The translations under genes were made by a program, and so were the position numbers. A stretch of DNA of 32,000 nucleotides from Alphaproteobacteria bacterium (GTDB taxonomy: Bacteria > Pseudomonadota > Alphaproteobacteria > Rs-D84 > SZUA-605), in NCBI GenBank assembly GCA_031549385.1, contig JAVBPW010000001.1:6142-38141 (forward strand). Direction: 5' to 3'. Positions 11,301 to 32,000 of the stretch are shown piece by piece. The stretch's first letter is position 1. Every line of letters starts with the position of its first letter. A model generated the notes under the pieces. The model ran no database searches and was not told where the DNA came from. It was given only the letters and a program-made list of their open reading frames with translations.

Positions 11301-11585
11301 GATGATTATCCTTGGATGTTTGAAAATAATAGACCTGAACAAGAAGTAATTGTTAAAGGGAAAAATGGAACTCAAGTTTATAGAATCGATAATCTTATTA
11401 TTAATGAAGATGAAGTCATCATTATTGACTATAAAACTGATAGAAAAGCTTCACTTGAATTATTTGAACTATATAAAAAGCAATTGAAAAACTATAAGCT
11501 AGCAATTGGCGATATTTATAAAGATAGAGCCATAAAGACTTATATTCTATGGCTCCTAGACGCTTCCTTACAAGAAATTATTTAG
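8337..11585 (+). CDS. addA: Double-strand break repair helicase-nuclease AddA
   Basis: 1082 aa with UvrD-type Walker A ASAGTGKTKVL, helicase motif II LLDEAQDTS, TVHGAKGLE, LLYVALTRAK, and a C-terminal RecB-type nuclease motif IIDYKTD. The start overlaps the upstream stop (ATGAATAA). No addB is adjacent. Confidence 0.85.
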   Translation: MNKLATEIQNKASNPTISAWVDASAGTGKTKVLTDRILKILLYGGDISKILCITYTKNSANEMLNRLIETSKKWAMMNDEKLKCELGNILEDEYINDELILKARTLFAVVCENIESIKIKTIHSFCEEILKKFPVEAGINPHFKNIPENERKAFLKNVINEIFKQNDVQVLDQISYLASFINQDAFGDIQKDIISNANKFEELFKTDFKTIDNKLRKTLEIKETDLDKIKLDFIKNHIGLFNGFVNISSALSETAKKYGRELSEFLLLNDIDKIRNFNSVVSIFLTGDKTVRKTPKEDNFQNLANKVFEFYKVFVNINVYNQSKAVLIIAKKFLDQYKQEKEKQGLLDFDDLISKTLALLTKKDISSWVIYKMNGGISHILLDEAQDTSPYQWKIIDAISENFFETNPRNFAEFKSIFIVGDRKQSIYSFQGADVENFEKYFKYLEDKIDNSDYKFKKVDMNVSFRSSETVLNFVDEVFKKDEILKGVSLDKVKHINGKELNGRVELYPHIKLNEKVKKDYIEGHFDEKFYENNYLNLAKAIAIKIRNLLDSKIYLADQKRYLSEQDIIILVKSRNRIVSYLNKELKNLDIEFEGIDKFKLLDDMATEDLLACGKFAVFPFDDLNLAGLFKSPLIGGSEKELFDLCYGRGGESLWDRILNSSDVEIAKKRTKLQKIYEHRNDTPFEFYSFVLNKLDGKKLLLKRLSMAALDSINYFINTALEWNNKIVSDLSSFLDFIVNGDIEIKREGQGNKQNGVKILTVHGAKGLEGQYVFLADTCKVKSNKAEDKFIFDEELFFWFVNKSFVNEQIENSLAHQSEKDMEEYKRLLYVALTRAKRNLYIFGLEKCEKNSWYEILRDTFNSLDKKKIESVPEYLAEYYEEDAKILSVENIVEEVSEIIEEKIEKKKESNFNYPQEPEIETPVLKNDVELDKNEESIRIGNIIHKIMQNVSQIPEDIRLDWVSEKIENSDLNDNQKEDFNNSLKTILDDYPWMFENNRPEQEVIVKGKNGTQVYRIDNLIINEDEVIIIDYKTDRKASLELFELYKKQLKNYKLAIGDIYKDRAIKTYILWLLDASLQEII

Positions 11586-11787
11586 ATAGATTTTGTATTA
11601 ATTTTACTAAATTTCTTTGACCTTCAAGAAAATACAATTCCTCTTTAGTTGCTGATGATGGAAGAGTTTTATTTAAAGTTATCTGATTTAAATATTCTAA
11701 CACATTCTTTCCATTTATATTATTGAAAGTTAAAAAGAAACTTCTTTGTAATTGCTCTCTTTCTTGTTTTTCTCTGACGTTAAACAT
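11578..11787 (-). CDS. Small portal-linked phage protein (Bbp19-like pattern), function unknown
   Basis: The track start (11793) is GTG. The ATG at 11787 overlaps the portal stop (ATGTTTAA) and has GAAGGTG upstream. The pattern F.TFNN.NGKNVLEYL...EGQRNLV resembles the small proteins that accompany podovirus portal genes. Its stop region overlaps the addA stop convergently by 8 nt. Confidence 0.45.
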   Translation of the reverse strand: MFNVREKQEREQLQRSFFLTFNNINGKNVLEYLNQITLNKTLPSSATKEELYFLEGQRNLVKLIQNLSK

Positions 11788-13357
11788 TTGCACCTTCCAT
11801 TTGCTTTTGTGTTTTTTGTATCATCCATTCTTTATAATTTTCTAGATTTTCAGCTAAGACTTTATCATCTAAATTTATCAAGCCATCTATTAAATTTGCT
11901 GGCATTTTATGAACAAACTCTAAAACCTTGTTTTCATATTCTTCATCTTTTGTTAGTAAAAAACTTTTAGAAATATTCATCTTTTTAGTTATTGATTGAA
12001 GGATTTCTTCTTTGTCTATCATCTTTTCAAATGTTTGACCTAAGGCTGATACCATTTTTATCCAATCCAAAATATTCGATACATCATCATAGGACTTTAA
12101 CTGGCCTAGTTTTGATACATAATTTATCTGAATATCACTTTTAGAATATGGATCTTTAATCTCACCCCTTCTTTTCAATATTGAATATGCTCTTAAAATT
12201 AATGGATTTAATAACTCACTTTGTAATCTTCCATATGTTGCTCCAAGTACCTTCAACGAGATACTTGAACGTTGCAATACTTCTGTTGCTGACATATTAA
12301 AGTTTTGATTAAATGGCTGTAATTGTGTTGATAATAATGCAGATTTTATATTCTCTCTTATATCTTTTAAAATTAAGTCTGAAATATTAAAATCTGTTCC
12401 TACTTTCAACGGTGTTAGCCCACTTGACCCCATTGCTTTTGGTATTATTGCCCCTGGGGTTAGTTCTATATTTGCTGGATTTAGCACTCCATCATCGTCC
12501 GCTTGCCATACTCCGCTTACTGCTAAAGAAGCATTTTTTAATACTAATTCTACTATTTTATTTGCTGTTTTTATGTCAGGTAGCGCTTTCATTATTGGAG
12601 ATCTTCCATAAAAAACTGATGGAGATTTAGTAAAGCGGAAAATTATAAATGGATTTTGCTCGAATGTTCCTGATGCTAATACTTGATTGTCATTTTCTGT
12701 GAAAATAAAATATTTAAATTCATTGTTTTGCTTGTATACACATTCCACTATATTCAACTTAAAGTCTGAGTCATTCTTTTGCACATCTTCCATTTGCTTT
12801 GTCGGAATAAAATTTGAAAACTTTTCTTTTATTGCTGCTAATCCCATTTGACTTTTCTTATATATGGTTTCTGGATGGGTTGAATTGTTTTCATCTATAT
12901 AAATATCACGCATAGAAATTGCTTTGAAATTAAAGGCTGAATTTTGTCCTAATTGAGCTTCTTCAAATAATAAACATGCTGTTCCTATTACACATAAATC
13001 TATGTAGCATTGATGAATTGTTGAAAAGAAATTTGAGCGACCTAAATGAGCATATATCTTTTCTTGAGTTTCATGCAATGTGATTTCTGCTAATCTCTTT
13101 GATTTTCTATCTTTAGTTTCATAGTTTGAATGCAACTGAAACCATGATGAATAAGGTGGAGTCATTTCTGATAAAAGATGTGAAGCTAATTGGTCTACAC
13201 AATCTGATGCAGTTGAATCAAATAAATTATCTTTTCTTGCACATGATGCAAATACATTTTGAGAGGGAAATGTATAATTATAACATTCTTCCCAAAGAGA
13301 TTCTAAATCTCTTCTTTGCTCTTTTATTTTATAATATTTTTGTATTTTATTTTCCAT
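11780..13357 (-). CDS. Phage portal (head-to-tail connector) protein, T7 gp8-like
   Basis: 525 aa, against about 536 aa for T7 gp8. The N-terminus Y.IKEQRR....W.ECYNYTFPSQNVF....D.LFDSTASDCVDQLASHLLSEMTPP parallels T7 gp8 (YERLKNDR...CAQYTIPSLFP...GARGLNNLASKLMLALFP). An AAGGAG RBS lies 5 nt upstream. Confidence 0.85.
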   Translation of the reverse strand: MENKIQKYYKIKEQRRDLESLWEECYNYTFPSQNVFASCARKDNLFDSTASDCVDQLASHLLSEMTPPYSSWFQLHSNYETKDRKSKRLAEITLHETQEKIYAHLGRSNFFSTIHQCYIDLCVIGTACLLFEEAQLGQNSAFNFKAISMRDIYIDENNSTHPETIYKKSQMGLAAIKEKFSNFIPTKQMEDVQKNDSDFKLNIVECVYKQNNEFKYFIFTENDNQVLASGTFEQNPFIIFRFTKSPSVFYGRSPIMKALPDIKTANKIVELVLKNASLAVSGVWQADDDGVLNPANIELTPGAIIPKAMGSSGLTPLKVGTDFNISDLILKDIRENIKSALLSTQLQPFNQNFNMSATEVLQRSSISLKVLGATYGRLQSELLNPLILRAYSILKRRGEIKDPYSKSDIQINYVSKLGQLKSYDDVSNILDWIKMVSALGQTFEKMIDKEEILQSITKKMNISKSFLLTKDEEYENKVLEFVHKMPANLIDGLINLDDKVLAENLENYKEWMIQKTQKQMEGANV

Positions 13358-13437: not shown

Positions 13438-13884
13438 TTATTGCTGTTGATACTTAATTAAATCTGAAATAGATTTATTTTCTTGTATATCACTTATCTT
13501 AATTCTCATTGGTTCACATTCATAACTTATCTTTGTATTTGTTATAAACTCAACTACTGGTGTTATTAATGTCATTGTTATTAAACATACTGTTATCATT
13601 ACTAAAGCACCTGCAAAATTAATTTGCTTACCACTTGCTAGCATATCAAATACCATTTTTAATATAACAAAAAATATCATTATATATGCTAACATTTTTA
13701 AAAAATCGATTAACTCTTTTACGTATTTTTGAAAACAACTGTTTGAAGTTACTACTAATGAATCTCCACTGATTACATTTTCATATCCAACAGATGTGAA
13801 ATAATTTTGCATCTCTGATAATGATACTGCAAATAAGTTACTGCATGCAAATATTATTAGAAAAATTACAAATATTTTATTCAT
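13438..13884 (-). CDS. Small membrane protein (signal/lipobox-like N-terminus plus two TM helices), function unknown
   Basis: 148 aa. The N-terminus FVIFLIIFAC resembles a lipobox, followed by two hydrophobic helices (MLAYIMIFFVILKMVF and AGALVMITVCLITMTLITPVV). The ATG overlaps the ftsZ stop (ATGAATAA), implying translational coupling. Confidence 0.5.
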   Translation of the reverse strand: MNKIFVIFLIIFACSNLFAVSLSEMQNYFTSVGYENVISGDSLVVTSNSCFQKYVKELIDFLKMLAYIMIFFVILKMVFDMLASGKQINFAGALVMITVCLITMTLITPVVEFITNTKISYECEPMRIKISDIQENKSISDLIKYQQQ

Positions 13885-15397
13885 CTTGTTCTTTTAAAAA
13901 GCTTTCAAAAGTATTTTCTTCTTCATTTAATGATGGCATGTCTTTGAATAAATCCATCAAATCATATGAAGCTGGTGTTTCTTTTTTAACTGGCTTTGGT
14001 TCTGGCCTTACTGGTCTTTCACCTTCTTCTTTAGCACCAAAGATATTTTTTAATTTACTTGAAAAAGATGCGTTTTTATCATCTGGCTTTGGTTCATTTG
14101 TTTGACCAATTGCCATTGATGAGATATCCAATGCTTGTGGGGTATCATCAAATTCTTCGATGATTACTTCATCCATTGTCATTGGAAATACTTCTTCAAT
14201 TTCTATTACTTCTTCTTGTTCTTCTTGCACTTCTTGTTCTTCTTCCAATGGAATAAATGTTTGTTCTTCATCTTCTTGAGTTGGTATCTCTTGAATTATT
14301 GTTGTTTCTGTGATTTCTATTATTCCATCTAATGGATCTAAGATTTCACCAGCTTCTTCTTGAACTGGTTTTGCTTCATCCAATATAGGTTTGATAAATT
14401 CATCAAAACTTTTATATTTGAAATCTGTATTTACTGAACCACTTAAACCTGTTGCTATTAATGTTAGGATTAATTTTCCATTTAAGCTTTTATCAAAGTT
14501 TGTTCCGAAAACAAAATTTTCTTGTGTCTTTAATTGATCCCTAACTTTTTCCATTATTCCTTTTACTTCACTTAATCTGATATCTGTACCACCAGAAATT
14601 TGAAGTAATACTTGTTTTGCTGAAACGGCACTTCCTTTGTCTATTAAATGATTTTCTAATACTTGTGAAACAGCATCTTCTACTCTGTTATCACCTGTTG
14701 TGATTGCAGAATTTACCATTATTTGACCACCATTATCTAAGATAGATTTGATGTCAGCAAAGTCTAAATTAATTTGACCTGTTGTATTTATTATGTCTGT
14801 TATTCCTTGTATACCATTTGCTATTTGCATATCTGCTGAACCAAATGCTTCTGATACTGGAATGTTATTATCAAATGCTGTGAAGAAATTTTCATTTGGT
14901 ATTATTACGTAACTTGATGTAGCTCCTGATAAATCATCCAGTGCGGAATTTGCTACTTTCTTTCTTTTTTCTCCTTCAAATGAGAATGGAAGAGTTACGA
15001 TTGATACGTTTAATACACCTGCTTGTGTTGCTGCATTTGTTAATATTGGAAGAGCTCCTGAACCTGTTCCTCCACCTAAACCGCCTACAAAAAATATTAA
15101 TGAAAAATCTTTAAAATAATCTTGAATTGCTGCAATATTTTCTATTGCACTTTGTTTTCCTATTTCTGGATTTCCACCTGTACCAAATCCTTTAGTCAAT
15201 TTTACACCAAGAGGAATCTTTGTTTCTGATAGTGAACTTTGTAAACTTTGAGAATCTGTGTTTAAGGCTACATATGTAACGCCTGATATTTTCTGCTTTA
15301 TTAGAGTGTTTAATATATTTATACCTGCACCACCTACACCTGCTATTAATATTTTTGGTGTAACATTATCTTCAAATTTAGCCCATGTATCTTGCAT
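13877..15397 (-). CDS. ftsZ: Cell division GTPase FtsZ
   Basis: GVGGAGINILN, GFGTGGNPEIG, GGLGGGTGSGALP (T4 loop), NLDFADI (T7 loop), a long acidic linker and a C-terminal FESFLKEQ resembling the conserved FtsZ tail peptide. A GGAGGG RBS is present. Confidence 0.9.
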   Translation of the reverse strand: MQDTWAKFEDNVTPKILIAGVGGAGINILNTLIKQKISGVTYVALNTDSQSLQSSLSETKIPLGVKLTKGFGTGGNPEIGKQSAIENIAAIQDYFKDFSLIFFVGGLGGGTGSGALPILTNAATQAGVLNVSIVTLPFSFEGEKRKKVANSALDDLSGATSSYVIIPNENFFTAFDNNIPVSEAFGSADMQIANGIQGITDIINTTGQINLDFADIKSILDNGGQIMVNSAITTGDNRVEDAVSQVLENHLIDKGSAVSAKQVLLQISGGTDIRLSEVKGIMEKVRDQLKTQENFVFGTNFDKSLNGKLILTLIATGLSGSVNTDFKYKSFDEFIKPILDEAKPVQEEAGEILDPLDGIIEITETTIIQEIPTQEDEEQTFIPLEEEQEVQEEQEEVIEIEEVFPMTMDEVIIEEFDDTPQALDISSMAIGQTNEPKPDDKNASFSSKLKNIFGAKEEGERPVRPEPKPVKKETPASYDLMDLFKDMPSLNEEENTFESFLKEQDE

Positions 15398-15481
15398 ATT
15401 TCCCTCCGAACTTAGTGTCCGATACTTTTTGTTTTTAAAGTATTTTCTTTAAAAATCCAGTTTTTTCCTTATTCGGTACAC

Positions 15482-15490
15482 ATTATAACA
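15482..15490 (-). promoter_or_regulatory. Candidate extended -10 promoter for ftsZ
   Basis: Minus strand reads TGtTATAAT, about 85 nt upstream of the ftsZ ATG. Confidence 0.35.
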
Positions 15491-15549
15491 TATTGTTTGT
15501 TTTTTTTATAGACTTTTTTATTTTTTTATATTACTATGCTTTAGTCATT

Positions 15550-15625
15550 GGCCAGGTAGCTCAGTTGGTAGAGCAAAGGACTGAAAATCCTTGTGTCGAC
15601 GGTTCGATTCCGCCCCTGGCCACCA
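15550..15625 (+). tRNA. tRNA-Phe (anticodon GAA), CCA encoded
   Basis: GGCCAGG-TA-GCTC-AGTTGGTA-GAGC-A-AAGGA-CTGAAAA-TCCTT-GTGTC-GACGG-TTCGATT-CCGCC-CCTGGCC-A-CCA. This is a clean cloverleaf with one A-C mismatch in the T stem (15599 with 15613). Confidence 0.95.
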
Positions 15626-15897
15626 CTTATTTTATTTTCAATAAAATCATTGTTGGAGGAGACGTTTCCTCACCTTCGGTTCGATGTCCTCGGCAAAATT
15701 GCCTGCGGGCTTCGCGTACGCATTTTAAATGCTACTTGTCGGGCCGCCCCTGGCCACTACTTATTTTATTTTCAATAAAATCATTGTTGGAGGAGACATT
15801 TCCTCACCTGCGGTTCGATGTCCTCGCAACTTTCGTTGCTTGCGGGCTTCGCGTACGCATTTTAAATGCTACTTGTCGGGCCGCCCCTGGCCACCAC
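15610..15897 (+). repeat. Tandem direct repeat: two units (15610-15743, 134 bp; 15744-15880, 137 bp) plus a terminal 17-mer, each starting with a copy of the tRNA-Phe 3' end
   Basis: CCGCCCCTGGCCAC(C/T)AC occurs at 15610, 15744 and 15881. The units are near-identical except for a swapped hairpin: GGCAaaatTGCC at 15692-15703 versus GCAACtttcGTTGC at 15826-15839. They are GC-rich relative to the surroundings. Confidence 0.9.
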
Positions 15898-15923
15898 AAA
15901 CTTGAAGTTTGACATTTTATTTT
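15897..15923 (+). terminator. Weak hairpin plus T-run ending the tRNA-repeat array
   Basis: CAAACT-tga-AGTTTG followed by ACATTTTATTTT. Confidence 0.4.
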
Positions 15924-15989
15924 AAAAAACTAAATAATTTTCCTAAATATCTAATTTTAGAATTGCTATTATTAGTTTATTTGGAAATT

Positions 15990-17165
15990 TTAATCTTCTA
16001 TGAATGGGTAGGATTTTACTGCTTCGGCTATCTTTTTTACTAATAATCTTTGATAGTCGTTTGTCTTTAATCGTTTCTCTTCTTCTCTGTTTGACATGTA
16101 TCCTAATTCAACTAATACTGATGGAATGTGAGACTTTAATACTGCAAATGGAGCGTATCTTTGATTAGTGTCTAATAATGATACACTTCTGTCCTTCTTA
16201 CATTTTTCGATTACTAACTTTGAAAAGATTATTGATTCCTCTTTTGTTTGTCGTAGTTTTAAATCACTTAACATACTTACTACTTTTTTATCATAATTTT
16301 TTGATAGTGATAAATCCATTAAGTCGGCTGCGTTTTCTCGTTCGGCTAGTCTTTGAGATTCTATGTCAGATGCTTTGTCTGATAATGTATATATAGATAA
16401 CCCCTTTGTATTTTCTTTTGGATGAGAGTCAGCATGAATTGATATAAATAAATCTGCCTTTTTCTTTCTTGCAAATTCACTTCTTTCAGCAAGCTGTAAG
16501 AAAGTATCGTTGCGACGAGTTAGATATACTTCATATCCCATGTTTTCTAATTCTCTTTCCAATAACTTTGCTGCTGATAAAGTTATTGTTTTTTCATAAG
16601 TTCCACCTTTTCCTATTGCTCCTGGATCTTTTCCACCATGACCTGCATCAACTACTATTATCTTCTTTGTATGCTTTTTCATTTTTTGATCTTGAGTTAT
16701 TATTGGAACGTTTGTAGTTTTTGGAATAACTTTTTCTTCGTCATCATCTTTATCTTTTGAACCTGATTTGCCTTTTTGAACAGTATCAAAAACTATACGA
16801 TAGTTTTTATTTGAACCTTGTGGATTTAATATAAAATGTTTTTCTATTTTTGCATCACCGTCTACATCAAGGACTACTCTGTTTATATTTGGTAATTTTC
16901 CATAACGAACATCTTTTACATAGTCTAACTTTGAACCTGAGCCATTTAACTTATAAGCTTTAGCTTGTTCTATATTTATTACTATGCGGTTATCCATATA
17001 TAAAAATGTATATTCTGGCTTGAAAGGAGTTTCTAATACAAATCTTACTCCACCCTCTGGACGTTTGCCTAATCTGTAGTCCATAGTCTCTGGTGCTCCA
17101 AATCCTTGCGAAAAGATTCCACATAAGAATAAAAAGAAAAATAATAAACCTTTTATTTTATTCAA
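15990..17165 (-). CDS. amiC: N-acetylmuramoyl-L-alanine amidase, AmiC-type (signal peptide, AMIN domain, amidase_3 domain)
   Basis: 391 aa. Signal peptide LLFFFLFLCGIFSQGFGA; AMIN-like N-domain (VRFVLE...RIVINI...RVVLDV); catalytic domain IIVVDAGHGGKDPGA...ADLFISIHADS...SVLVELGY. The start codon is TTG at 17165 and overlaps the stop of the upstream pilin-like gene. Confidence 0.85.
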   Translation of the reverse strand: MNKIKGLLFFFLFLCGIFSQGFGAPETMDYRLGKRPEGGVRFVLETPFKPEYTFLYMDNRIVINIEQAKAYKLNGSGSKLDYVKDVRYGKLPNINRVVLDVDGDAKIEKHFILNPQGSNKNYRIVFDTVQKGKSGSKDKDDDEEKVIPKTTNVPIITQDQKMKKHTKKIIVVDAGHGGKDPGAIGKGGTYEKTITLSAAKLLERELENMGYEVYLTRRNDTFLQLAERSEFARKKKADLFISIHADSHPKENTKGLSIYTLSDKASDIESQRLAERENAADLMDLSLSKNYDKKVVSMLSDLKLRQTKEESIIFSKLVIEKCKKDRSVSLLDTNQRYAPFAVLKSHIPSVLVELGYMSNREEEKRLKTNDYQRLLVKKIAEAVKSYPFIED

Positions 17166-17693: not shown

Positions 17694-18551
17694 TCAAATA
17701 TTGAAATTAGTTTTTGCTTGATAAAATGCTTTTTTTTCATTTGAATTTATAATTACTTTTCTTGATAAACTTCCAAAGTTTGATTCTAAGCCTGTTGCTA
17801 TTGCATCTATACAATCATCTTTATTATTTTGACGCTCTATTTTGAAAGATTCTAATTCTTCAACTAACACTGAAGTAGTCAGATTTGCTTTTATATAAAA
17901 ATATGATGAATATAAAAGTGGTTGAATGTTTCTTATTATTCTCTCATTCTTGTTTTGTGTTTGGACTACCTTCTTTATAAATATAGGATAATTCATAGTT
18001 TTTGCTGTTTGAATTATCATCTCTGATAAGAATGCACCTATTCCATTTGTTTCAATTACTAAGTTGAATAAATTGTTCTTTTTCATAAAAATTATTACCT
18101 CTTCACACTGATACTGCGCAGATGAATTTTCATCTTCTTTATTTAAACATTTCAAATCATTTATATAACAATTACTTTGATCATCTTTGAATATTGCTAC
18201 TACTATACTTTTATCACTTGTTGCTTTACCTAATGATGGATCCCATGATACACATCCGAAAGTTAAATTTCGACCATCCAAAAAATATTTTTGTATTCCA
18301 TTACTTTGAAATAACTCCACATCTTTGTTGTATACATTTATTAGTGAAGTATCAAAAAAAATATTGTCCGTTTCTGGGACAATAAGCAACATTTGTGAAT
18401 TAAATTTTAATGGACCTGAACGATGTGCTATTTCTTTACATTTTTTAGGTGAAAATCGTTCTGGCCAAACTGAATTTCCTTTTTCATCAAAAAGCGGTAT
18501 TTTTAATATTTCAAACCCTTCTAAGAAAGGTGGAGATTTTGAAACTAACAT
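17694..18551 (-). CDS. Terminase large subunit, C-terminal (nuclease) half as a separate ORF
   Basis: 285 aa beginning ...IPLFDEKGNSVWPERFS..IAHRSGPLKFNSQMLL, then VSWDPSLGKATSDKS (first acidic nuclease motif region) and NKDDCIDA near the end. It has its own AAGGA RBS and ATG, with a TAA directly upstream in frame. Confidence 0.8.
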   Translation of the reverse strand: MLVSKSPPFLEGFEILKIPLFDEKGNSVWPERFSPKKCKEIAHRSGPLKFNSQMLLIVPETDNIFFDTSLINVYNKDVELFQSNGIQKYFLDGRNLTFGCVSWDPSLGKATSDKSIVVAIFKDDQSNCYINDLKCLNKEDENSSAQYQCEEVIIFMKKNNLFNLVIETNGIGAFLSEMIIQTAKTMNYPIFIKKVVQTQNKNERIIRNIQPLLYSSYFYIKANLTTSVLVEELESFKIERQNNKDDCIDAIATGLESNFGSLSRKVIINSNEKKAFYQAKTNFNI

Positions 18552-18787
18552 TTATTTCCTTATTTTTGCGAATCCAAAATGCTTTATCAACCTTTTAAAA
18601 GGCAACTTATCTTTGTTTGAAATTTCAATGATTTATAAAAAAAAGAACCCGGGGCAACTTTTTTATAGGAGAGGAGGAAGGAGAAAAAGAGAATGCCTCG
18701 GGATTTTTTATATAGACTCGGAGCCTATACGGTTCACACTTTAAACACCTGATTCTAAATTGTCAAGCATAAAGTTTTCTTTAGTAT
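18552..18787 (-). other. 236-bp non-coding insert splitting TerL, carrying a promoter-like element and a long hairpin
   Basis: Stops occur in all minus-strand frames. TTGACA-N17-TAAAGT lies on the minus strand (18766-18738). An extended hairpin at 18648-18702 (CCCGGGGCA...TGCCTCGGG plus an inner T/A-run stem) has an apical loop that is CUCCUUCCUCCUCUCCU on the minus strand and GGAGAGGAGGAAGGAG on the plus strand. T-runs flank it on both sides. Confidence 0.6.
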
Positions 18788-19420
18788 TTATTTATTTGCA
18801 TATATTGTGTCATAAGTGTGTGGAGTACCTATATAAAGCTGTAAACCATTGGGATTCAATATAAAATCTAGTTCTGATAGAAATTGGCGAAGATTTTCTC
18901 TTTTTTCCGAATTATCGCTGTTTTTTGGCACTTCGCAGTCATCACATATTATTATATCAGCCCTGTAACCCGTTATATTTCCCATTACTGATGCTGAAAT
19001 TACAGATGGATCTCTTAATTCTTTAGTTCTTTCAACTGTAAAACAGTCTGAAGCCCATTGCTCTTTCTTTAATGGGACTAAATTTTGGGTTAAAGGATGC
19101 TTTTGTATAATATGTTTTATATTTCGTACCATTTTTGTTGCCAAATTTTGTTCACATGACAAGATTAATATGACTAAATTTGGATTTTTATATAAAATCC
19201 ATGCACAAAATAAACCAACTATTGATGACTTGCCTGAATTTCGAAAAGCCATCAATAATCCCTTTTTAGTTTGTGATGTGTGTATTTTTTCCAACCAAAA
19301 TGCTATTTGTTTATGATGATTTGGGGTTTTGAATTCGTTTTGTTTGTTAAATATATCTATAAATTCATAAAAATTTACTTTGATTGCTTGATTAGATATT
19401 TCCGTAATCTTCGCTTTCAT
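18788..19420 (-). CDS. Terminase large subunit, N-terminal (ATPase) half as a separate ORF
   Basis: 210 aa with Walker A-like AFRNSGKSS, Walker B ADIIICDD, and an end at LYIGTPHTYDTIYANK, where an uninterrupted TerL would run on into the nuclease domain. The ATG lies inside the 3' end of the fibre-like gene (29-nt overlap). Confidence 0.85.
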   Translation of the reverse strand: MKAKITEISNQAIKVNFYEFIDIFNKQNEFKTPNHHKQIAFWLEKIHTSQTKKGLLMAFRNSGKSSIVGLFCAWILYKNPNLVILILSCEQNLATKMVRNIKHIIQKHPLTQNLVPLKKEQWASDCFTVERTKELRDPSVISASVMGNITGYRADIIICDDCEVPKNSDNSEKRENLRQFLSELDFILNPNGLQLYIGTPHTYDTIYANK

Positions 19421-20054
19421 TGTAAGCTTCCATGATAGTTCCTAAATCTTGAGAAAGTTCAGGAAATTTTGCTTTTAATAAATCAATCATATTTACTACC
19501 AAACCATAACAACTTCCATCGTTTGAATTATTTAACAACTTTTTCATATCTTCAAATATTATTTTTATATCTTCATATGTTTTTTCAGCTGATAAACTTT
19601 CATCAAGGAAATCAATTTCTGAATTTACTAATCGTTTTGCTGTTTCATCCCAGACTATTGCTTTTTTTGCTTCTGCTTGAGGAAGAGTTGTTTTTATTTC
19701 ACCTTTTTCTGGATCATATTTAATACATTTCTTTAGCTCCTCATTTGTCTGTCTTATTAATTCAACTATGTAATCCATATCTAGATTTAAATCTTGAGCA
19801 GATATTACCCCATATTCTTGTAAATCTGTTTGGCGAACTATTTTTAAATTCCTTTTTATAACTATTTTACTATTTAATGCTGGTGGAATGGAAAATATTA
19901 TTTGCCCATAATCATCACTGAGCTCTGTATGGTAACCACCCTCTTGCTTTAATCCATTTATATAAATTTCTAAATTTTCTGGTTTAAAAACTTTAAAGTT
20001 AAATGAAAATTCTGTTGTTGTACCATTTGCTTTATATGTTACTTGATTATCCAT
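19392..20054 (-). CDS. Tail fibre protein, T7 gp17 N-terminal adaptor-domain-like, short
   Basis: 220 aa. VTYKANGTTTEFSFNFKVFKPENLEIYINGL....Y......G.IIF..P......I.IKR.....R.TDLQEYGVISAQDLNLDMD parallels the T7 gp17 N-terminus (LTYQLDGSNRDFNIPFEY...VVVTLIG...IELRRVT...VDFTDGSILRAYDLNV). A GGAGG RBS is present. Confidence 0.75.
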   Translation of the reverse strand: MDNQVTYKANGTTTEFSFNFKVFKPENLEIYINGLKQEGGYHTELSDDYGQIIFSIPPALNSKIVIKRNLKIVRQTDLQEYGVISAQDLNLDMDYIVELIRQTNEELKKCIKYDPEKGEIKTTLPQAEAKKAIVWDETAKRLVNSEIDFLDESLSAEKTYEDIKIIFEDMKKLLNNSNDGSCYGLVVNMIDLLKAKFPELSQDLGTIMEAYNESEDYGNI

Positions 20055-20544
20055 TTGTACCTCCGCTGATTATTGTAGTTGTGCTTTTTGTTGTCTTTGG
20101 CATTGCTGAACTTACTGTTGTTACTGTACTGCCTACTCCAGAAATTAGATTTCTTCTTTTTGACATTAAATTCTTTGATAATGTGTTATCTAAATCTCTT
20201 GTCAAATTTTTTGAACTTGCTTCATAGTCTTGTTGATTACTATATTGTCTTTTAGCAGATTCTTCTTTTATATTACTTAACACTGCTGATGAAGATTCTG
20301 AATCTATTTCAATTTGATTAGCTCCAAATCTTGCACTTTGTTCTGCTAATGTTCTTTTTAATAATGAATTTTCTGTTTCTTGTTGCTCCTTATAATTTCT
20401 GTCCAAAGCTTCTTTTTTAATCTCATAATCTTCCATTATTGTTTTCTTTTGTTTTTTATTTTCATCTGCATTTAAGGCTTGATCTATACCTTTAAATATT
20501 AAATCAAATCCTGTTGCTGCTACCGTTGCTGCTGCTGTTGCCAT
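20047..20544 (-). CDS. Hypothetical virion-associated protein (coiled-coil, Ser/Thr-rich tail)
   Basis: 165 aa with an AAGGAGG RBS. It occupies the position of the T7 gp13-16 internal proteins but is far smaller. I recognise no motif. Confidence 0.4.
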   Translation of the reverse strand: MATAAATVAATGFDLIFKGIDQALNADENKKQKKTIMEDYEIKKEALDRNYKEQQETENSLLKRTLAEQSARFGANQIEIDSESSSAVLSNIKEESAKRQYSNQQDYEASSKNLTRDLDNTLSKNLMSKRRNLISGVGSTVTTVSSAMPKTTKSTTTIISGGTNG

Positions 20545-20556
20545 TTAAAACCTCCT

Positions 20557-22446
20557 TTAAGATAGTGCTTTAATTTTTAGTGAAATACTTTGCATACAAA
20601 ATTTAAATGGTGCATCACTTTGTATTTTCCAAAGTGGAGTGTTTCCATTTGTTTTATATCCAAATGATGACATTACATAATTACCTGTGAATTCTGTTAA
20701 ACCTTTTCCATAACTACGTTGCTCCAGTTGTAATTTGTTTAATCCAAATCCTGTGTCTATTTCTAATATTGCTGATTCTTCTAATCTTATTGATAATTCT
20801 ATTAGTCTGTACTTTTTGTAACCACCGCCTGATAACTTAGTAAATGGAAATGGAACAATCGTATGTTTATATGGATAGCCTATACAATAACTTGAAACAG
20901 GTTCGTTTAAAATCATTGTACTTTCTTCTATTTTCTTTTTTGAATATATAAAATCATCAACTTTAATATAAATTTCTTCTCCTAAATATTCACTTAATTC
21001 ATAAATACCTGTTATACTTTGTTCTTTTGAATGTTCGTATTTTGCACAATCTAAATATAAATCGTCTTCAAATTTTTCCAGATAAAAGTTTTCATTTCTT
21101 TTAGTTATTACATAGGTATTATTATCTAATGTTGTTGAATATAAAAACTTCCCATATGTTTGATAGTTACTCCAAGATAAAACTTGATTCTGAGGAGATA
21201 CTGTTAATACTGCCATTTCTCCATTTGATAAAACTACATACAATTGTCTTTTAGACTTATTATAAGTCATATCAGTTGGATCTTTTATTAAATGTGAACA
21301 AAGTTGCGATAGATTGTTTGATGTATAATTTGCTACCACTTGTCCATATACAAATTCTCTGATTTCTTTTTTGTCTTTTGATACAAAAATTGTTGCTGAT
21401 TCTATTTGTAACACTGGTAAAAATCTCTCTGTTGGACTTCCTATTGCTGTTTGCTTCGATAAAGATACTGTTGATGGTGTTATCAAATTTGTTGGAACTA
21501 TCCATTCACCACTGTATGTTAAAATTTGTAAATGAAGGGCTGAAAATATTGTCTGAATTTCTTCCATACCTGAAGATAGGAGACAGAATTCTATTGCTTC
21601 ATCATCTAACCCTTGTCCGCAATCAAAGTTTCCATATGTAAAAGTTTTTGAAAACCATAACTTATTTGGCTGAGTTGGAGTTGCTCCAAAAACTAAACGA
21701 CCTTGATGAAAACATGAAGTTTTTGGATACCCTCTTGTATCAGAAAAAGCAGCCTCTTTGTATGAACCTTGAGCAATATTTTTAAATTGCTTTAAGACCT
21801 GAATGTTTGCTTTTACTAAAGAAATTATACTTATAATTTTAAAAGAACCTTCGTTAAATATAAATTCTTTATTAATCATGTCTGATGTAAAAAAATCTAC
21901 ATTAGATGTTATTGTTGTTGCCCCTGTTATTCCAGCCGGTGTAAATAAAACACTCTTTTTATCATCAAATTTATAATAAGGGTAAAGACTTGTTCCGTAT
22001 GTGTCTTGAGCGAACACAAAATTCTTAAACACAAAACCATAAGTTTTTTCATAGGTCAAAACTTTTGGATGGTGGTTTTGATGAGTGAAAATCATTTCTG
22101 ATAAATTCTGAGATGTTTGTATTTGATCGATTTCACTTTCTTTATATGGAGTTTCTAAAATATCAAATAACGCATCGTCTTTGTATAAATACATTAGACC
22201 TGGAAGTAATACTATTAGATAATTATCATTACTTTTTAATGTAAAACTGAATAATTTTCCCTTTTGTGGAAGTTTATGGACTAGTTTTAATCCGCCTCTT
22301 CTTTTTATTGCTCCACTCTCTGTTGTGTGAGCATTTTGTAAAACTGATACCCCGTTTGAATGTGCTGCTAAATCAGCACGAGATGTGTAACTTTGAGCAA
22401 GTTCTCCATTTAAGAAAGAGTTTTGTGTGTGTGTAAATATTGTCAT
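20557..22446 (-). CDS. Tail tubular protein B-like (T7 gp12-like)
   Basis: The track start (22452) is TTG. The ATG at 22446 lies 6 nt after AAGGAG. The N-terminus NSFLNGELAQ....RADL.....G...L.N......G.IKRRGG follows the pattern of the gp12 N-terminus (KNLKGGISQQPD..RYPDQ....NG........GLQKRPP). Its position after gp11-like also fits. Confidence 0.6.
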   Translation of the reverse strand: MTIFTHTQNSFLNGELAQSYTSRADLAAHSNGVSVLQNAHTTESGAIKRRGGLKLVHKLPQKGKLFSFTLKSNDNYLIVLLPGLMYLYKDDALFDILETPYKESEIDQIQTSQNLSEMIFTHQNHHPKVLTYEKTYGFVFKNFVFAQDTYGTSLYPYYKFDDKKSVLFTPAGITGATTITSNVDFFTSDMINKEFIFNEGSFKIISIISLVKANIQVLKQFKNIAQGSYKEAAFSDTRGYPKTSCFHQGRLVFGATPTQPNKLWFSKTFTYGNFDCGQGLDDEAIEFCLLSSGMEEIQTIFSALHLQILTYSGEWIVPTNLITPSTVSLSKQTAIGSPTERFLPVLQIESATIFVSKDKKEIREFVYGQVVANYTSNNLSQLCSHLIKDPTDMTYNKSKRQLYVVLSNGEMAVLTVSPQNQVLSWSNYQTYGKFLYSTTLDNNTYVITKRNENFYLEKFEDDLYLDCAKYEHSKEQSITGIYELSEYLGEEIYIKVDDFIYSKKKIEESTMILNEPVSSYCIGYPYKHTIVPFPFTKLSGGGYKKYRLIELSIRLEESAILEIDTGFGLNKLQLEQRSYGKGLTEFTGNYVMSSFGYKTNGNTPLWKIQSDAPFKFCMQSISLKIKALS

Positions 22447-22456
22447 TGCCAACTCC

Positions 22457-22858
22457 TTAATATAAAAATAGTGTTTGTGGTAAGTTTGTGTAATTGCTTC
22501 GAAGATCGAGATGTATAAATGTTTTTGCTATACCAACTGAAAAGCCTAAATTAAGTGCACACCTTATTAGCTTTGCATTTAAAATCCCGTTTTGTTTTGC
22601 TATATCAATTGCACAAGTTGCTAAATTTTGCTTTTCATCAAAAATGTGAAAACTGTTTTTTACTCCACCTATTTCTTGATTATAAGATAAACTTCTGCAA
22701 CATGAATTAACAATCATAGGATGTCCATAAAGCAATCTTAATTCTTTTAATTTTTCTGCAAAACTACAAGCTAGTATTCCGTCTTTTGATTTTTTACATT
22801 GAAGTTCCTTTATGGAAAAGAGAACTTTTCCATTGTCGTCTTTTATATCTTGTAACAT
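22457..22858 (-). CDS. Peptidase M15-family cell wall peptidase (endolysin-type)
   Basis: 133 aa. SCCRSLSYNQEIGGVKNSFH...CAIDI...FIHLDLR fits the M15A pattern (S.YRS...N...GG...S.H ... A.D ... H.D zinc ligands). Confidence 0.75.
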   Translation of the reverse strand: MLQDIKDDNGKVLFSIKELQCKKSKDGILACSFAEKLKELRLLYGHPMIVNSCCRSLSYNQEIGGVKNSFHIFDEKQNLATCAIDIAKQNGILNAKLIRCALNLGFSVGIAKTFIHLDLRSNYTNLPQTLFLY

Positions 22859-22859
22859 A

Positions 22860-23429
22860 TTAACCTCGGCAGTCTATTAATGAGAATTTAGTTATTTTTT
22901 CTGGGGTCTTTTGTTGAGCGTCTATTAGTTTTGCTAATCTTTCTTGGCTTATACAAACTTGGTTTAAGTAACTTGATTTTGCATGGTCTTCTGTTAATGG
23001 AAGACAAAATTCATAAGATAAAAAATCCACTAATAAATTTATGAAAAATGGAGGCATTTGACTTTCGTCAATATCCTGAATCACTTTTATTGTTACTATG
23101 TCTGAGTTTGCATAAAGTCGGTCTTTCATTATTTTATATGAAATGTCTGAAAAATTATCCCCTGCCCCACATGAAATTATCCTTAAAATATTTTTAGGTA
23201 ATAAATAGGTATATGAATAACCTTGAATTGCAGGTTCATCTAATGATGCTGGTTGAATTAAATTGCAAGCAAATGTCCATGGGTATGATGAAAGCAATTT
23301 TTGTTTTACTATTTTATAAAAAGATTTTGAAATTTTAGCTTCTGCTGTGTTTTGATTAAAATTTGATATTGTATTTGCACCTATTTTAAGCAATGCCATA
23401 GAGCAAATATCTATGTTTGTGTAATTCAT
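22860..23429 (-). CDS. Tail tubular protein A-like (T7 gp11-like)
   Basis: 189 aa, against 196 aa for T7 gp11. DICSMALLKIGANTISNFNQNTAEAKISKSFYKIVKQKLLSSYPWTFA parallels gp11 [46 protein letters not shown]. Confidence 0.7.
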   Translation of the reverse strand: MNYTNIDICSMALLKIGANTISNFNQNTAEAKISKSFYKIVKQKLLSSYPWTFACNLIQPASLDEPAIQGYSYTYLLPKNILRIISCGAGDNFSDISYKIMKDRLYANSDIVTIKVIQDIDESQMPPFFINLLVDFLSYEFCLPLTEDHAKSSYLNQVCISQERLAKLIDAQQKTPEKITKFSLIDCRG

Positions 23430-23452
23430 TAGAAATACTCCTTTTAAAGTTT

Positions 23453-23475
23453 AAAGGGGGCAAAAAGCCCCCTTT
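23453..23475 (-). terminator. Strong GC hairpin after the capsid and 76-aa genes (probable partial terminator)
   Basis: AAAGGGGGC-aaaaa-GCCCCCTTT, a 9-bp stem, is the most GC-rich hairpin inside the cluster. It sits between the 76-aa ORF and the gp11-like gene. Confidence 0.5.
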
Positions 23476-23477
23476 TA

Positions 23478-23708
23478 TTACATTGCTACTAATGTTACTG
23501 CTGTGTCAGTTACTGCTGAAACTGCTGCAATTACACTTTGATCACTTGCATTGATGAAAATAAAATCATTAGCATTAATTACTTTTGACATGTCTGCAAA
23601 ATATGTAGATGCCATTGTTACTGCTTTTGTATCTGTTGTTTTATAGTGCCACAATGTGAAGCCATTTGCATAGGCTAGTACGCTTAAATTGTTTGTTTTA
23701 AAAGCCAT
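23478..23708 (-). CDS. Small hypothetical phage protein downstream of the capsid gene
   Basis: 76 aa with an AAGGAG RBS and tight spacing after the capsid gene. I recognise no motif. Confidence 0.4.
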   Translation of the reverse strand: MAFKTNNLSVLAYANGFTLWHYKTTDTKAVTMASTYFADMSKVINANDFIFINASDQSVIAAVSAVTDTAVTLVAM

Positions 23709-23719
23709 AGTATTCTCCT

Positions 23720-24553
23720 TTATGCTACTATTGCTGCGTCATCTTTGCAGCTGATTTTTACTATTCCACTTTCGTCAATTACACATGAACCTTGGCTCAT
23801 TGAGTTTGATATGAAATGTGATTGGCGATCGCCTTGCCATGAAATGTCAGATTTTACTTCTGAACCTACAGCATGACCTATTGCTGTTTTATGATAAATA
23901 AAGCATTGGCGATTTCCTGAAATTAATGGAAGATTGTTGTGTAAAATCCAAATTACTCCCATCCATTTTCTTGCTTCACTTCCATTTATTAATGCATAGT
24001 TTTCACCACAATATTCTGATGAAGTGAATTCTTTAATGCTTAATAGTTCTGACCATTGATGAACACCTACTACACCAAATCTTTGACCGTCGTCTGGACA
24101 TGAAAGTTCATTCAATTTTTCAATTGCTTTCATAATCTTTTCTTTTGTTAGACCTTTTGTGTCCGCTGCTACTTCATTTGTTGCTTTTGAAAGTGCACTA
24201 ATGATTAATTCATCTGTTTTTCTTCCTAATGCATATGCTCCAGCTGAAGCTATTACTTTTCTTTCGTCTGTGTTTGTTTTTAATTCATCCATAGCATCGC
24301 ACCAATCGCCTGCATAAAAATCTTGCAAAACACATTCTATTGGTGTGTGTTGAATGTTCATTGTTGGAACTAACCCATGACGAGATTTTGTTGATGCTGT
24401 GCCTTTGCCTACTCTTTGGAATGTAGTTGAAGAACCTTTTACATCATTTTTTACTCGCACAGTGTTGCGTAGTTTTGTTCCGTATTGTTGATATTGCAAA
24501 TGTACATCTGCTTCAAATTGTTTGATAAATGCTTGATCTATTGTTAAAGACAT
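23720..24553 (-). CDS. Major capsid protein
   Basis: 277 aa, positioned after the scaffold gene. The N-terminal pattern F..QFEADVHLQYQQ.GTKLRNTVRVKN.V.GSSTTFQRVGKGTASTKSRHG is one I recognise from podovirus and prophage capsid proteins. An AAGGAG RBS is present. Confidence 0.7.
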   Translation of the reverse strand: MSLTIDQAFIKQFEADVHLQYQQYGTKLRNTVRVKNDVKGSSTTFQRVGKGTASTKSRHGLVPTMNIQHTPIECVLQDFYAGDWCDAMDELKTNTDERKVIASAGAYALGRKTDELIISALSKATNEVAADTKGLTKEKIMKAIEKLNELSCPDDGQRFGVVGVHQWSELLSIKEFTSSEYCGENYALINGSEARKWMGVIWILHNNLPLISGNRQCFIYHKTAIGHAVGSEVKSDISWQGDRQSHFISNSMSQGSCVIDESGIVKISCKDDAAIVA

Positions 24554-24642
24554 TCTTATTCTCCTTTAATTAATTATTTAATTGTCGACTTTATACCGGA
24601 GGGTGAGTCTTTATTTATTGTTATCCTTGCGGGCAATAGTTT

Positions 24643-25272
24643 TTATTTGTATAGTTTTTCAAATCCTTCTTTTACCTTTTGGCAAAATTCCGGATCATTT
24701 TCTTTCCAATATTTTGGATTATTCATTAGCTTCTTTAGTGAATCTAATGTTAATTGTTTTGATGGGGATGATGTTTCGTCTAAGATTTTAGGCTCTGATG
24801 AATTCAACATCTTATATAGTAATAATACTCCGTCATATGATGAAGCAAGAACTTCATATAAATCTTGAGATAGATTATTGTCTGCATATGTTTGAATTTG
24901 AGATGCTACTTTTTCCCAATTTTCTTGTCCACCAAAATAATTTTTTAAATTTTGTAATTGTGTTTGTTGTTTTAAATCAAATTCTGTTTCTTGTATCTTT
25001 GTATTTAAATTCTGATTCAAAATATCATGAACACATTTTGCTTGTGATTTTGTAAATTTATTTTCAAATAGTTTCTTACCTATAGCTTCATCTTGAAAAT
25101 CTAGTTCATATTCACTTGGGTCTTGAGGTAAATCTAAATTTATTTCTTCTTGATTTGATGTGCTTAGCTTTTTTTCTAAATCTTTATATGATTTCAATAA
25201 ATTTTTTGCGTTTAGTTGACCTGTTTCTTTATCCAAAAATTTTTCTGGTATCTTTATTTCTTGATCTGTCAT
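24643..25272 (-). CDS. Capsid scaffolding / assembly protein
   Basis: 209 aa, acidic and helical. The N-terminus IPEKFLDKETGQLNAKNLLKSYKDLEKKL is typical of phage scaffold proteins, and the gene sits immediately upstream of the capsid gene. Confidence 0.6.
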   Translation of the reverse strand: MTDQEIKIPEKFLDKETGQLNAKNLLKSYKDLEKKLSTSNQEEINLDLPQDPSEYELDFQDEAIGKKLFENKFTKSQAKCVHDILNQNLNTKIQETEFDLKQQTQLQNLKNYFGGQENWEKVASQIQTYADNNLSQDLYEVLASSYDGVLLLYKMLNSSEPKILDETSSPSKQLTLDSLKKLMNNPKYWKENDPEFCQKVKEGFEKLYK

Positions 25273-25280
25273 AATTGCTC

Positions 25281-25466
25281 CTATTTTAAATTTTCATCAA
25301 TAGATTTTCTTAAGAAAACTATCGAAAATAATGGGAAGATTGTGGAAAATAAATTAGCTAAATCTAAATCTCCTAATAAATATCCTGAGACTGCTGAAAT
25401 AATTCCTGTGATTGATACAAGGTATGTTTTTTTACCTTTTAACATTCCACCGTTTAATAAATTCAT
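25281..25466 (-). CDS. Holin-like small membrane protein (two TM segments)
   Basis: 61 aa with two hydrophobic stretches (YLVSITGIISAVSGYLLG and LFSTIFPLFSIVFL) and a charged C-terminus. It is adjacent to a cell wall hydrolase. Confidence 0.45.
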   Translation of the reverse strand: MNLLNGGMLKGKKTYLVSITGIISAVSGYLLGDLDLANLFSTIFPLFSIVFLRKSIDENLK

Positions 25467-25476
25467 TTTAATTCCT

Positions 25477-25938
25477 TTATATTTTGTAAAATAAATATTG
25501 TTTTATTTGAGTTTGGTAACCTTTTCCTTCTGCGAGTTCTGGAAATTCGTCTTCGTGATGGTAAAAAGTAGATCCAAAGGTTGTATCCTTTAAAATTCCT
25601 CGTAGCACTTTACCGGCTAGCCTTGAACATATTGCAAATTCAGGATTGGTTATTGTGGTACCTGGAAGTTTATTTTTTAATTTTTGATAAAAGTTTTCAT
25701 CTAAACAAATTGAGTCTATGGTTTTATTAGCATGATTTGAATTTTTAATTCTGTTTGCTATTGTGCATGCTATTGCTTCTTTTAAAATTAATGAAAGACC
25801 ATAAGATTCATGATATATGGTAAAGGCTAGTATAAATTGTTGGTGTTCTTTCTTTTGACAATCTTGAAGTAATATATCTTTATATTCTTTGGTTGCATTT
25901 GATTTTGTGAAATCACAAAATTTTAAACTATTTAACAT
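25477..25938 (-). CDS. SleB-like cell wall hydrolase
   Basis: 153 aa. AFTIYHESYGLS...EAIACTIANRIKN resembles the Hydrolase_2 (SleB) core motif (..Ea..e...g..AVa.vi.NR). Confidence 0.55.
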   Translation of the reverse strand: MLNSLKFCDFTKSNATKEYKDILLQDCQKKEHQQFILAFTIYHESYGLSLILKEAIACTIANRIKNSNHANKTIDSICLDENFYQKLKNKLPGTTITNPEFAICSRLAGKVLRGILKDTTFGSTFYHHEDEFPELAEGKGYQTQIKQYLFYKI

Positions 25939-26218
25939 TATACTTCCTTTTTTCTAATTTTTCTTCTATACGCAATAAATGATTTGTTAGACGAGTTTCA
26001 AGATCTCTAATGTAAGAAACCGAACAATAGGACATTGCTACTTCAAGCTTGTATGAAGATAAATCTTCGGCAAGCTTTATAACATTTGCCTTTGCTTCGT
26101 CTTTTAATTGATTTAAATCGTTTTGAGTTTGCCTTGAATGGGATCTTAGTAAAAAAAATAAGCCTGTTAGTGCAGGCAATTCTATTACTTGTATCCACCA
26201 AAAATAGCTAAATTCCAT
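25928..26218 (-). CDS. Phage membrane protein (N-terminal TM plus coiled coil), first gene of the cluster
   Basis: 96 aa. A TM helix (WWIQVIELPALTGLFFLL) is followed by a coiled-coil region. There is an 11-nt overlap with the hydrolase gene. A holin, antiholin or spanin-type role is possible. Confidence 0.4.
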   Translation of the reverse strand: MEFSYFWWIQVIELPALTGLFFLLRSHSRQTQNDLNQLKDEAKANVIKLAEDLSSYKLEVAMSYCSVSYIRDLETRLTNHLLRIEEKLEKRKYNVK

Positions 26219-31667: not shown

Positions 31668-32000
31668 TGAATAATGATGAACAAAGAATTTTTGATGCTA
31701 AGAAAAAAGATGAAGACATTTTATCTTTAAGACCAAAGTTTTTAAAAGAACTAATTGGTCAAATGGAAGTTAAAGATAATTTAGATGTTTTTATTTCTGC
31801 AGCGCTTAAGGAAAGCAGAGCTTTGGATCATGTTCTTTTTCATGGACCTCCAGGACTTGGAAAAACTACACTCGCTCATATTGTTGCTAGAGAATTAGGA
31901 GTTGGATTTAGAGCAACTTCCGCACCTATGATTTCTAAGGCTGGTGACTTGGCTGCTATTCTTACAAATTTACAACAAAATGATGTTTTGTTTATTGATG
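31667..32000 (+). CDS. ruvB: Holliday junction branch migration helicase RuvB; 5' part, runs off the right edge
   Basis: My translation reads [112 protein letters not shown]. This contains the canonical RuvB N-terminus and Walker A. Confidence 0.95.

Follow-up and report, generated by a model that had tools for sequence, protein, structure and literature searches.

What are the two GC-rich units that stand in tandem directly behind the tRNA-Phe gene of this 32-kb stretch of DNA (the window, meaning the whole stretch that was analysed), each closed by a copy of the tRNA 3' end? The first-pass annotation of the locus had offered two answers: attachment-site (att) scars or cis-mobilizable mini-elements left by serial integration, or structured small RNAs (sRNAs) that end in a tRNA-like CCA. 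It did not name the tyrT/RtT repeats of Escherichia coli, which by their architecture appear to be the closest known analogue of the array. In our estimation the chances are about even that the array is a lineage-specific, RtT-type tandem repeat in the trailer of tRNA-Phe, which would have arisen by recombination and unequal exchange and would be co-transcribed with the tRNA and trimmed away, the unit pieces being by-products. This reading derives from the anatomy of the repeat, its topology, the parallel with tyrT and two unit-free relatives (loci L029 and L042), which together point to an array with the layout of RtT, not homologous to it and absent from relatives.

The array is composed of the following features.

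15550-15625, + strand: tRNA-Phe(GAA) with encoded CCA and an A-C mismatch in the T stem (15599/15613), called by ARAGORN and Rfam (70.2 bits).
15610-15626, + strand: 17-mer copy 1, comprising the T-stem 3' strand, the acceptor 3' strand, ACCA and one further base (CCGCCCCTGGCCACCAC).
15627-15743, + strand: unit 1 interior, 117 nt, in which ~30 nt of AT-rich leader precede a GC-rich core that contains small hairpins.
15677-15685 and 15811-15819, + strand: the two copies of a 9-mer, CGGTTCGAT, identical to the tRNA T-stem/T-loop, found by local alignment of the unit interior with the tRNA.
15692-15703, + strand: variable hairpin, unit 1 version, GGCAAAATTGCC / GGCAaaatTGCC (GGCA-aaat-TGCC).
15744-15760, + strand: 17-mer copy 2, with one mismatch, CTA replacing CCA.
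15761-15880, + strand: unit 2 interior, 120 nt.
15826-15839, + strand: variable hairpin, unit 2 version, GCAACTTTCGTTGC / GCAACtttcGTTGC (GCAAC-tttc-GTTGC).
15881-15897, + strand: 17-mer copy 3, same as copy 1.

The 17-mer CCGCCCCTGGCCACCAC consists of the last 16 nt of tRNA-Phe and the next base, and its three copies lie in direct orientation. Mismatch searching and alignment bear out the annotated arrangement, in which the tRNA 3' end recurs at 15610, 15744 and 15881 and bounds two units; no further match with up to three mismatches is present in the 32 kb, where 0.01 would be expected by chance. The unit periods are 134 and 137 nt, and the array amounts to 2.13 copies of a ~135-nt module that runs from an AT-rich leader of ~30 nt through a GC-rich core to the 17-mer. 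Tandem Repeats Finder reports nothing in the array region, in which the ~2.1 copies are too few for that program. The two units share blocks of 83 nt at 96% identity and 62 nt at 97% identity, and the swapped hairpin falls outside these blocks. The units differ by the substitutions G15664/A15798, T15676/G15810, C15703/T15840 and CCA/CTA in the 17-mer; the three point changes annotated before, CCA/CTA among them, stand, but the count becomes four if C15703/T15840 is included. All four exchange a GC pair and an AT pair, and the sole polarisable one, CCA to CTA, goes toward AT. This substitution pattern and the 96-97% identity would be expected of a recently arisen sequence in decay in an AT-biased genome. 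Over their 3' 100 nt the units have a GC content of 56% and 57%, compared with 30.6% for the window, and are indeed far richer in GC than their surroundings, as had been stated. To find 56-57% GC in a 31% GC genome calls for an explanation, either selection or recent acquisition from a foreign source.

The tyrT/RtT repeats of E. coli were already known in the late 1970s, and neither their origin nor their role is settled. In the tyrT locus (L045), units with a period of 178 nt (3.14 copies) follow tRNA-Tyr, and each ends in AATCCTTCCCCCACCACCA, the 19-nt 3' end of tRNA-Tyr. Both arrays place tandem units directly behind a tRNA gene, in the tRNA trailer, and in both each unit closes with the tRNA 3' end including CCA (19 nt in tyrT, 17 nt in the tRNA-Phe array), although here one of the three 17-mer copies reads CTA. 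In both, the last fractional copy is the tRNA end alone, and within each unit a GC-rich core follows a leader richer in AT. The middle of the unit bears a T-loop-like GGTTCGA motif in both cases; in tyrT it is AAGGTTCGA, a T-loop-like copy of the tRNA T arm, and the corresponding 9-mer match in the tRNA-Phe array, CGGTTCGAT, is weak, ~4% of shuffles scoring equally high. The Rfam RtT structure closes on the tRNA-derived end, which is also involved in the predicted closing helix of the units described here. The differences are equally clear. The tRNA is Tyr, the host enterobacterial and the period 178 nt in one case; in the other the tRNA is Phe, the host alphaproteobacterial and the periods are 134 and 137 nt. 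The RtT family RF00391 has no match in 15400-16050 at E<=10 (family cut-off 45 bits), whereas the positive control, the E. coli tyrT locus, gives four matches of 133-138 bits. Therefore, the resemblance to RtT is architectural and not homologous. The E. coli units carry a tpr-like basic ORF (open reading frame), in place of which only an ORF of 14-15 codons without a properly spaced ribosome-binding site is seen here. One of the tyrT repeat units encodes an sRNA, rttR (PMC3318445, citing Bosl & Kersten 1991).

The short ORFs of the two units, MSSAKLPAGFAYAF (15684-15728) and MSSQLSLLAGFAYAF (15818-15865), lie on the + strand and are 14 and 15 codons long. Their frame is kept across the 3-nt length difference of the swapped hairpin, and the stop codon lies within a hairpin loop. 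A coding role was rejected on two grounds: no Shine-Dalgarno sequence is suitably spaced, and neither unit length is divisible by 3.

The placement of the array with respect to its neighbors was compared among related loci. The genes on either side of tRNA-Phe, the only tRNA called in the region (ARAGORN and Rfam agree), are the following.

13877-15397, - strand: FtsZ gene, divergent from tRNA-Phe.
15990-17165, - strand: AmiC-type amidase gene, convergent toward tRNA-Phe.

The databases yielded no close relative of the source. FtsZ is highly divergent, its best non-self match among 5.8 billion proteins being 51% identical over the GTPase core. The best non-self matches of the amidase are 69% (partial) and 47% identical, and its top matches are proteins labeled 'MAG: Rickettsiales bacterium' and 'Alphaproteobacteria bacterium' (MAG, metagenome-assembled genome). 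The source of the window is an uncultured, Rickettsiales-like alphaproteobacterium. A search of metagenome contigs with the 3' 53 nt of tRNA-Phe yielded one locus, L029, and look-ups guided by FtsZ and the amidase yielded L003, L042, L043, L044, L046 and L047; within the latter group tRNA-Phe is present only in L042, and a unit accompanies tRNA-Phe in none. L029 is a metagenome contig of 55% GC, compared with 31% for the window. Its tRNA-Phe matches that of the window at all 76 nt, the A-C mismatch included, and so does the C that comes after CCA; FtsZ is divergently oriented upstream, as in the window, and the locus contains neither a unit nor a second 17-mer. In L042, which encodes an FtsZ and an amidase 51% and 45% identical to those of the window, the arrangement of FtsZ and tRNA-Phe is the same, the T stem has a normal G-C pair, and the tRNA-Phe locus is again free of units. 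Copies of the unit at the tRNA-Phe loci of relatives, for which the first-pass annotation had allowed, are thus missing from the two loci that keep FtsZ/tRNA-Phe synteny. As sampled, the array appears to be an insertion between tRNA-Phe and its terminator that is specific to the lineage of the window.

These comparisons also bear on the T-stem mismatch, which had been taken as the mark of a tRNA 3' half supplied by a recombining element. The A-C pairing of 15599 with 15613 is present in the alignment, but the unit-free L029 carries it too. The T-stem 3' strand, CCGCC, is common to the window, L029 and L042, and because L042 has a G-C pair with this same 3' strand, the deviant base lies on the 5' (host) strand. 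The mismatch is therefore a lineage trait and no footprint of recombination at the tRNA-Phe locus.

The order of the genes that adjoin the amidase 3' end varies. In L042 (3818-6832) an S15-type hydrolase and RuvB follow; in L003 (3-2476), whose amidase is 69% identical to that of the window, a portal gene follows directly with no tRNA between; and in the window the tRNA-Phe array occupies this position. The window has the hydrolase/RuvB pair at 30999-32000, where its orientation with respect to the amidase is the reverse of that in L042. With a different order in each of the three genomes, the array therefore sits at a rearrangement junction. The amidase-portal spacer of L003, the closest relative (663-910), is itself GC-rich and hairpin-rich (cattgc...gcaatc, cccctttgggg), but it is not similar to the units and gives no match in Rfam.

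The unit was also searched for outside this locus. No copy is present elsewhere in the 32-kb window, BLAST against phage records gives no match, and the unit core has no match among IMG/VR viral contigs. BLAST against plasmids gives three short matches, the best of which, in Sinorhizobium, lies in GC-rich, unannotated sequence that looks protein-coding; this match, the only one inspected, was taken as chance. A permissive two-anchor pattern run against the 185,579 species genomes of GTDB, a set that does not include the source genome, returned 24 matches, all attributable to chance in GC-rich genomes and aligning only at the anchors. In 179 kb of collected loci, no additional copy was detected with a covariance model of the two units. 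The further copies contemplated in the first-pass annotation were accordingly met in none of these collections. Rfam, at the gathering cut-off and at E<=10, recognizes only the tRNA in 15400-16050; weak matches to YrlA, RcsR1, PreQ1 and permuted tmRNA (transfer-messenger RNA) were rejected as chance or driven by the T arm.

Two signals frame the array.

15505-15532, + strand: promoter-like site TTTATA-16-TATATT upstream of tRNA-Phe, 9/12 matches in a consensus scan.
15897-15925, + strand: weak AT-rich hairpin (CAAACU-uga-AGUUUG) followed by a T-rich run, -3.4 kcal/mol.

Promoter-like sites in the region are not in excess of shuffle expectation. The hairpin and T-run with which the array had been said to end are present, but the hairpin is weak and was not called by a terminator consensus scan. 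They are likely to be the original trailer and terminator of tRNA-Phe. The units are placed between tRNA-Phe and this sole, and weak, terminator-like signal, and in L042 the tRNA-Phe gene is followed directly by a T-run and a terminator hairpin. From this position and the L042 layout, a single transcript comprising the tRNA and both units, as annotated, is a fair inference. Another promoter-like match, TTGACA-18-AATAAT (11/12; 15909-15938, + strand), occurs right after the array, reading antisense into the 3' end of the amidase gene; it may be a chance occurrence in AT-rich DNA.

Structure signals in the units are weak, with one exception. As annotated, a hairpin in one unit is replaced by a different hairpin at the same position in the other. 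The two are equal in stability (-5.7 and -5.8 kcal/mol), and 8% and 5% of composition-matched shuffles fold as well. This swap is the one non-trivial structure signal. It would fit selection on a stem and, equally, a template-switch rewriting of a quasi-palindrome without selection. Folded whole, the units are unremarkable, reaching z-scores of -1.75 and -2.25 on the + strand against -0.63 and -1.19 on the - strand, and the single-sequence minimum free energy (MFE) folds disagree with the alignment-based folds on the long-range helices. Three small hairpins recur across folds; the further hairpins previously described in the units are present, but they are small and none is significant individually (z -1.2 to -1.6). 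Between the two units, no pair has changed on both sides within the aligned predicted helices.

Together, these observations suggest the following course of events. The 3' end of a tRNA gene is a known recombination hot spot. Recombination at the 3' end of tRNA-Phe, at a site that would coincide with the gene-order breakpoint, may have left ~117 nt of GC-rich DNA with a copy of the tRNA end on either side, and this flanked segment could then have been duplicated when the 17-nt copies slipped or exchanged unequally. The array, lying before the terminator-like signal, would be transcribed within the tRNA-Phe precursor and removed during ordinary 3'-end maturation, in which endonucleases would cut within the AU-rich leaders and exonucleases would then trim the ends. 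The released pieces would most probably be by-products without sequence-specific function, and the weak structure signals, namely the folding z-scores and the disagreement between folds, count in favor of this proposal. Several points weigh against it. The 17-nt copies are short for homologous exchange, and no source for the GC-rich 117 nt was found in the collections searched. The GC-rich core and the hairpin swap could reflect selection on an RNA; the joint chance of a hairpin being swapped at equal stability is roughly 0.4%, and the transcribed strand folds somewhat better than the opposite strand. The source genome was examined over 32 kb only. Finally, the sampled relatives are distant (FtsZ 38-51% and amidase 45-69% identical), and absence from relatives therefore says little about recent constraint.

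The same observations can be read as those of a functional structured sRNA, each unit being freed from the tRNA-Phe precursor by the enzymes of tRNA processing and stabilized by its tRNA-like 3' end, similar to RtT or to 3'ETS-leuZ. The persistence of a GC-rich core in an AT-rich genome, a hairpin swap that preserves both geometry and stability, the co-transcription implied by position, the better folding of the + strand and the RtT-parallel architecture, including the T-loop-like motif and the closing helix on the tRNA-derived end, all agree with such a role. In addition, there is precedent for functional RNAs in tRNA trailers: in E. coli, 3'ETS-leuZ is a non-tRNA spacer that is transcribed behind a tRNA, is freed by tRNA processing and acts as an sRNA sponge. 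Like 3'ETS-leuZ, the array lies behind a tRNA and is predicted to be co-transcribed with it; 3'ETS-leuZ, however, is single-copy, where two units are present here, and it is Hfq-bound with known sRNA partners. We nevertheless consider an sRNA function unlikely, given that the whole-unit z-scores reach only -1.75 and -2.25, that the MFE and alignment-based folds disagree, that no pair in the aligned predicted helices has changed on both sides, and that unit 1 closes, at the middle 17-mer, in CTA and not CCA. No homologue was found in the collections searched, the relatives L029 and L042 are without the unit, and template switching can rewrite a palindrome without selection. The units could also be decayed tandem tRNA copies, in which the T loop was split by a 57-60-nt insertion and the 5' halves drifted to AT. 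The 9-mer CGGTTCGAT is the same as in the T arm and is located 50 nt from the preceding CCA, as it is from the 5' end of the tRNA; a GAGGA...TCCTC hairpin lies at the position of the anticodon arm; the unit core and the tRNA have the same GC content (0.56); and the E. coli RtT unit has the same split of the T arm. An origin of this kind is nonetheless very improbable: the 9-mer match has a p of only ~0.04, the Rfam tRNA model has no match in the units at E<=10, and the units contain no 5' acceptor strand. As candidate pseudo-tRNAs the units were also rejected by ARAGORN, which finds none in them with standard or 80% thresholds, even with the 57-nt insert removed in silico. Neither a tmRNA (ARAGORN) nor a match to the tRNA clan of Rfam (E<=10) was detected in the units.

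An integrative origin is suggested by the topology. Integration targeted to a tRNA gene characteristically leaves that gene intact and followed by displaced, directly oriented 3' fragments, and a fragment that begins at the T-stem 3' strand, as the 17-mer does, fits the T-loop/junction crossover class (PMC4383910). The units might thus be miniature att-flanked integrative elements, comparable to cis-mobilizable elements (CIMEs), or two scars of serial integration, with the 17-mer as att core and the integrase supplied in trans. Phage-derived genes adjoin tRNA-Phe in both the window and L029, and the high GC content fits foreign DNA. Among IMG/VR contigs, those with the 17-mer are unrelated GC-rich phages, some of which hold a longer 3' segment of tRNA-Phe in an att-like manner (L041, L040); they show only a general use of this tRNA end as an att site. 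Similar to the tandem tRNA islands catalogued by Islander, the locus combines an intact tRNA with displaced direct 3' fragments starting in the T-stem region. The criteria for tRNA islands also include an integrase and length (PMC4383910); the array intervals contain no integrase, measure 117 and 120 bp in place of kilobases and are copies of each other, and on these counts the cis-mobilizable mini-elements proposed by the first-pass annotation are not supported as active elements. The Phage_integrase family has no match in the 36 window ORFs tested; by their sequence motifs, the two ORFs that run off the window ends look like GyrB/ParE and RuvB. Intervals of 117-120 bp are far below any island known to us, and a circle of 134 bp would be under severe strain. 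Remnants 96-97% identical are not what two independent integrations would leave, and as the two intervals are copies of each other, there was at most one primary event followed by duplication. No related sequence was found in the viral, phage and plasmid collections, and no att-sharing integrative element in those collections or in the window. CIMEs are kilobase-sized and share att sites with a resident integrative and conjugative element, and Rickettsia palindromic elements (RPEs) are dispersed in many copies. With both, the array has in common that it is short, non-autonomous, hairpin-rich, repeat-flanked DNA, in this case in a Rickettsiales-like genome; unlike them, it was found at no second locus in the 32 kb, and no further copies, as would mark a dispersed palindromic repeat (RPE-like or resembling a miniature inverted-repeat transposable element), were found in the window or the collected loci. 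Miniature integrative elements or paired integration scars are accordingly a distinctly unlikely account. A one-off recombination at the tRNA 3' end remains plausible as the origin of the first 17-X-17 arrangement.

The notion of serial integration beside a T7-like prophage is not supported by the phage-like genes themselves either, which are arranged as follows.

11578-13357 and 17694-26218, - strand: podovirus-type structural gene set.

This set encodes a T7-like portal, a Bbp19-like protein, a capsid protein, tail tubular A- and B-like proteins, a fiber N terminus, a split terminase, an M15 peptidase and a cell-wall hydrolase, and it contains no integrase, replication or regulatory genes within the window. 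The genes are interleaved with FtsZ and the AmiC-type amidase, in linkages that recur in the distant relatives L042 and L003: FtsZ, a ~148-aa protein, then portal and Bbp19; and terminase, a ~155-aa protein, then amidase. No fourth tRNA fragment bounds them. The set appears to be old and domesticated and not a recent T7-like prophage, and it is possibly a module similar to a gene transfer agent.

The tandem itself could be an assembly artefact, a single unit having been joined end to end with its allele from another strain. The genome was assembled from a metagenome, and in the same sample (SRR23967709) two independent Logan contigs break off at 15583 and 15866, at either edge of the repeated stretch. 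Such breaks are, however, those expected of a true repeat with two entries and two exits in a k=31 graph. The junction between units 1 and 2 (P arm, CTA core, leader) carries the private CTA variant, which mis-joining of the other two copies cannot yield; an artefact is therefore unlikely, and in our judgment barely credible. One of the two contigs, L001, ends at 15583 inside the anticodon loop of the tRNA and not at the repeat, which may point to strain variation or to another sequence in the sample with the same tRNA 5' half.

The layout of the array is one already known from tyrT/RtT, and what is new is an independent, sequence-unrelated array in a distant lineage. Such an array suggests a general generating mechanism, for example T-loop/3'-end recombination with unequal exchange, or, alternatively, a general use of tRNA-end mimicry for trailer RNAs. 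A further reading, to which we attach little probability, is that RtT-type arrays form a recurrent class of modular trailer RNAs with independent origins, of which the tRNA-Phe array would be a second, sequence-unrelated, alphaproteobacterial member. In that case the borrowed T-loop-like motif and tRNA 3' end would let the tRNA maturation and CCA-repair machinery define and stabilize RNA ends. If the array is no more than a scar, tRNA-Phe stands out in this lineage as a hot spot of rearrangement that neighbors a domesticated, podovirus-like gene set. In practical terms, arrays of this kind break short-read assemblies at tRNA genes and can be mistaken for the att sites of islands.

Two further observations concern the phage-like genes. 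In L029 (6993-7562), a capsid-gene fragment lies ~330 bp downstream of tRNA-Phe; it is homologous to the capsid gene of the window (23720-24553) and aligns over only about the first 57 codons. The large terminase of the window is split; the gene could be a pseudogene, could encode an enzyme in two parts or could be interrupted by an intervening element. Its N-terminal ORF, of 210 aa, and its C-terminal nuclease ORF, of 285 aa, are found 236 bp apart on the - strand, at 17694-18551 and 18788-19420, and a similar split is seen in L042 (1-1711).

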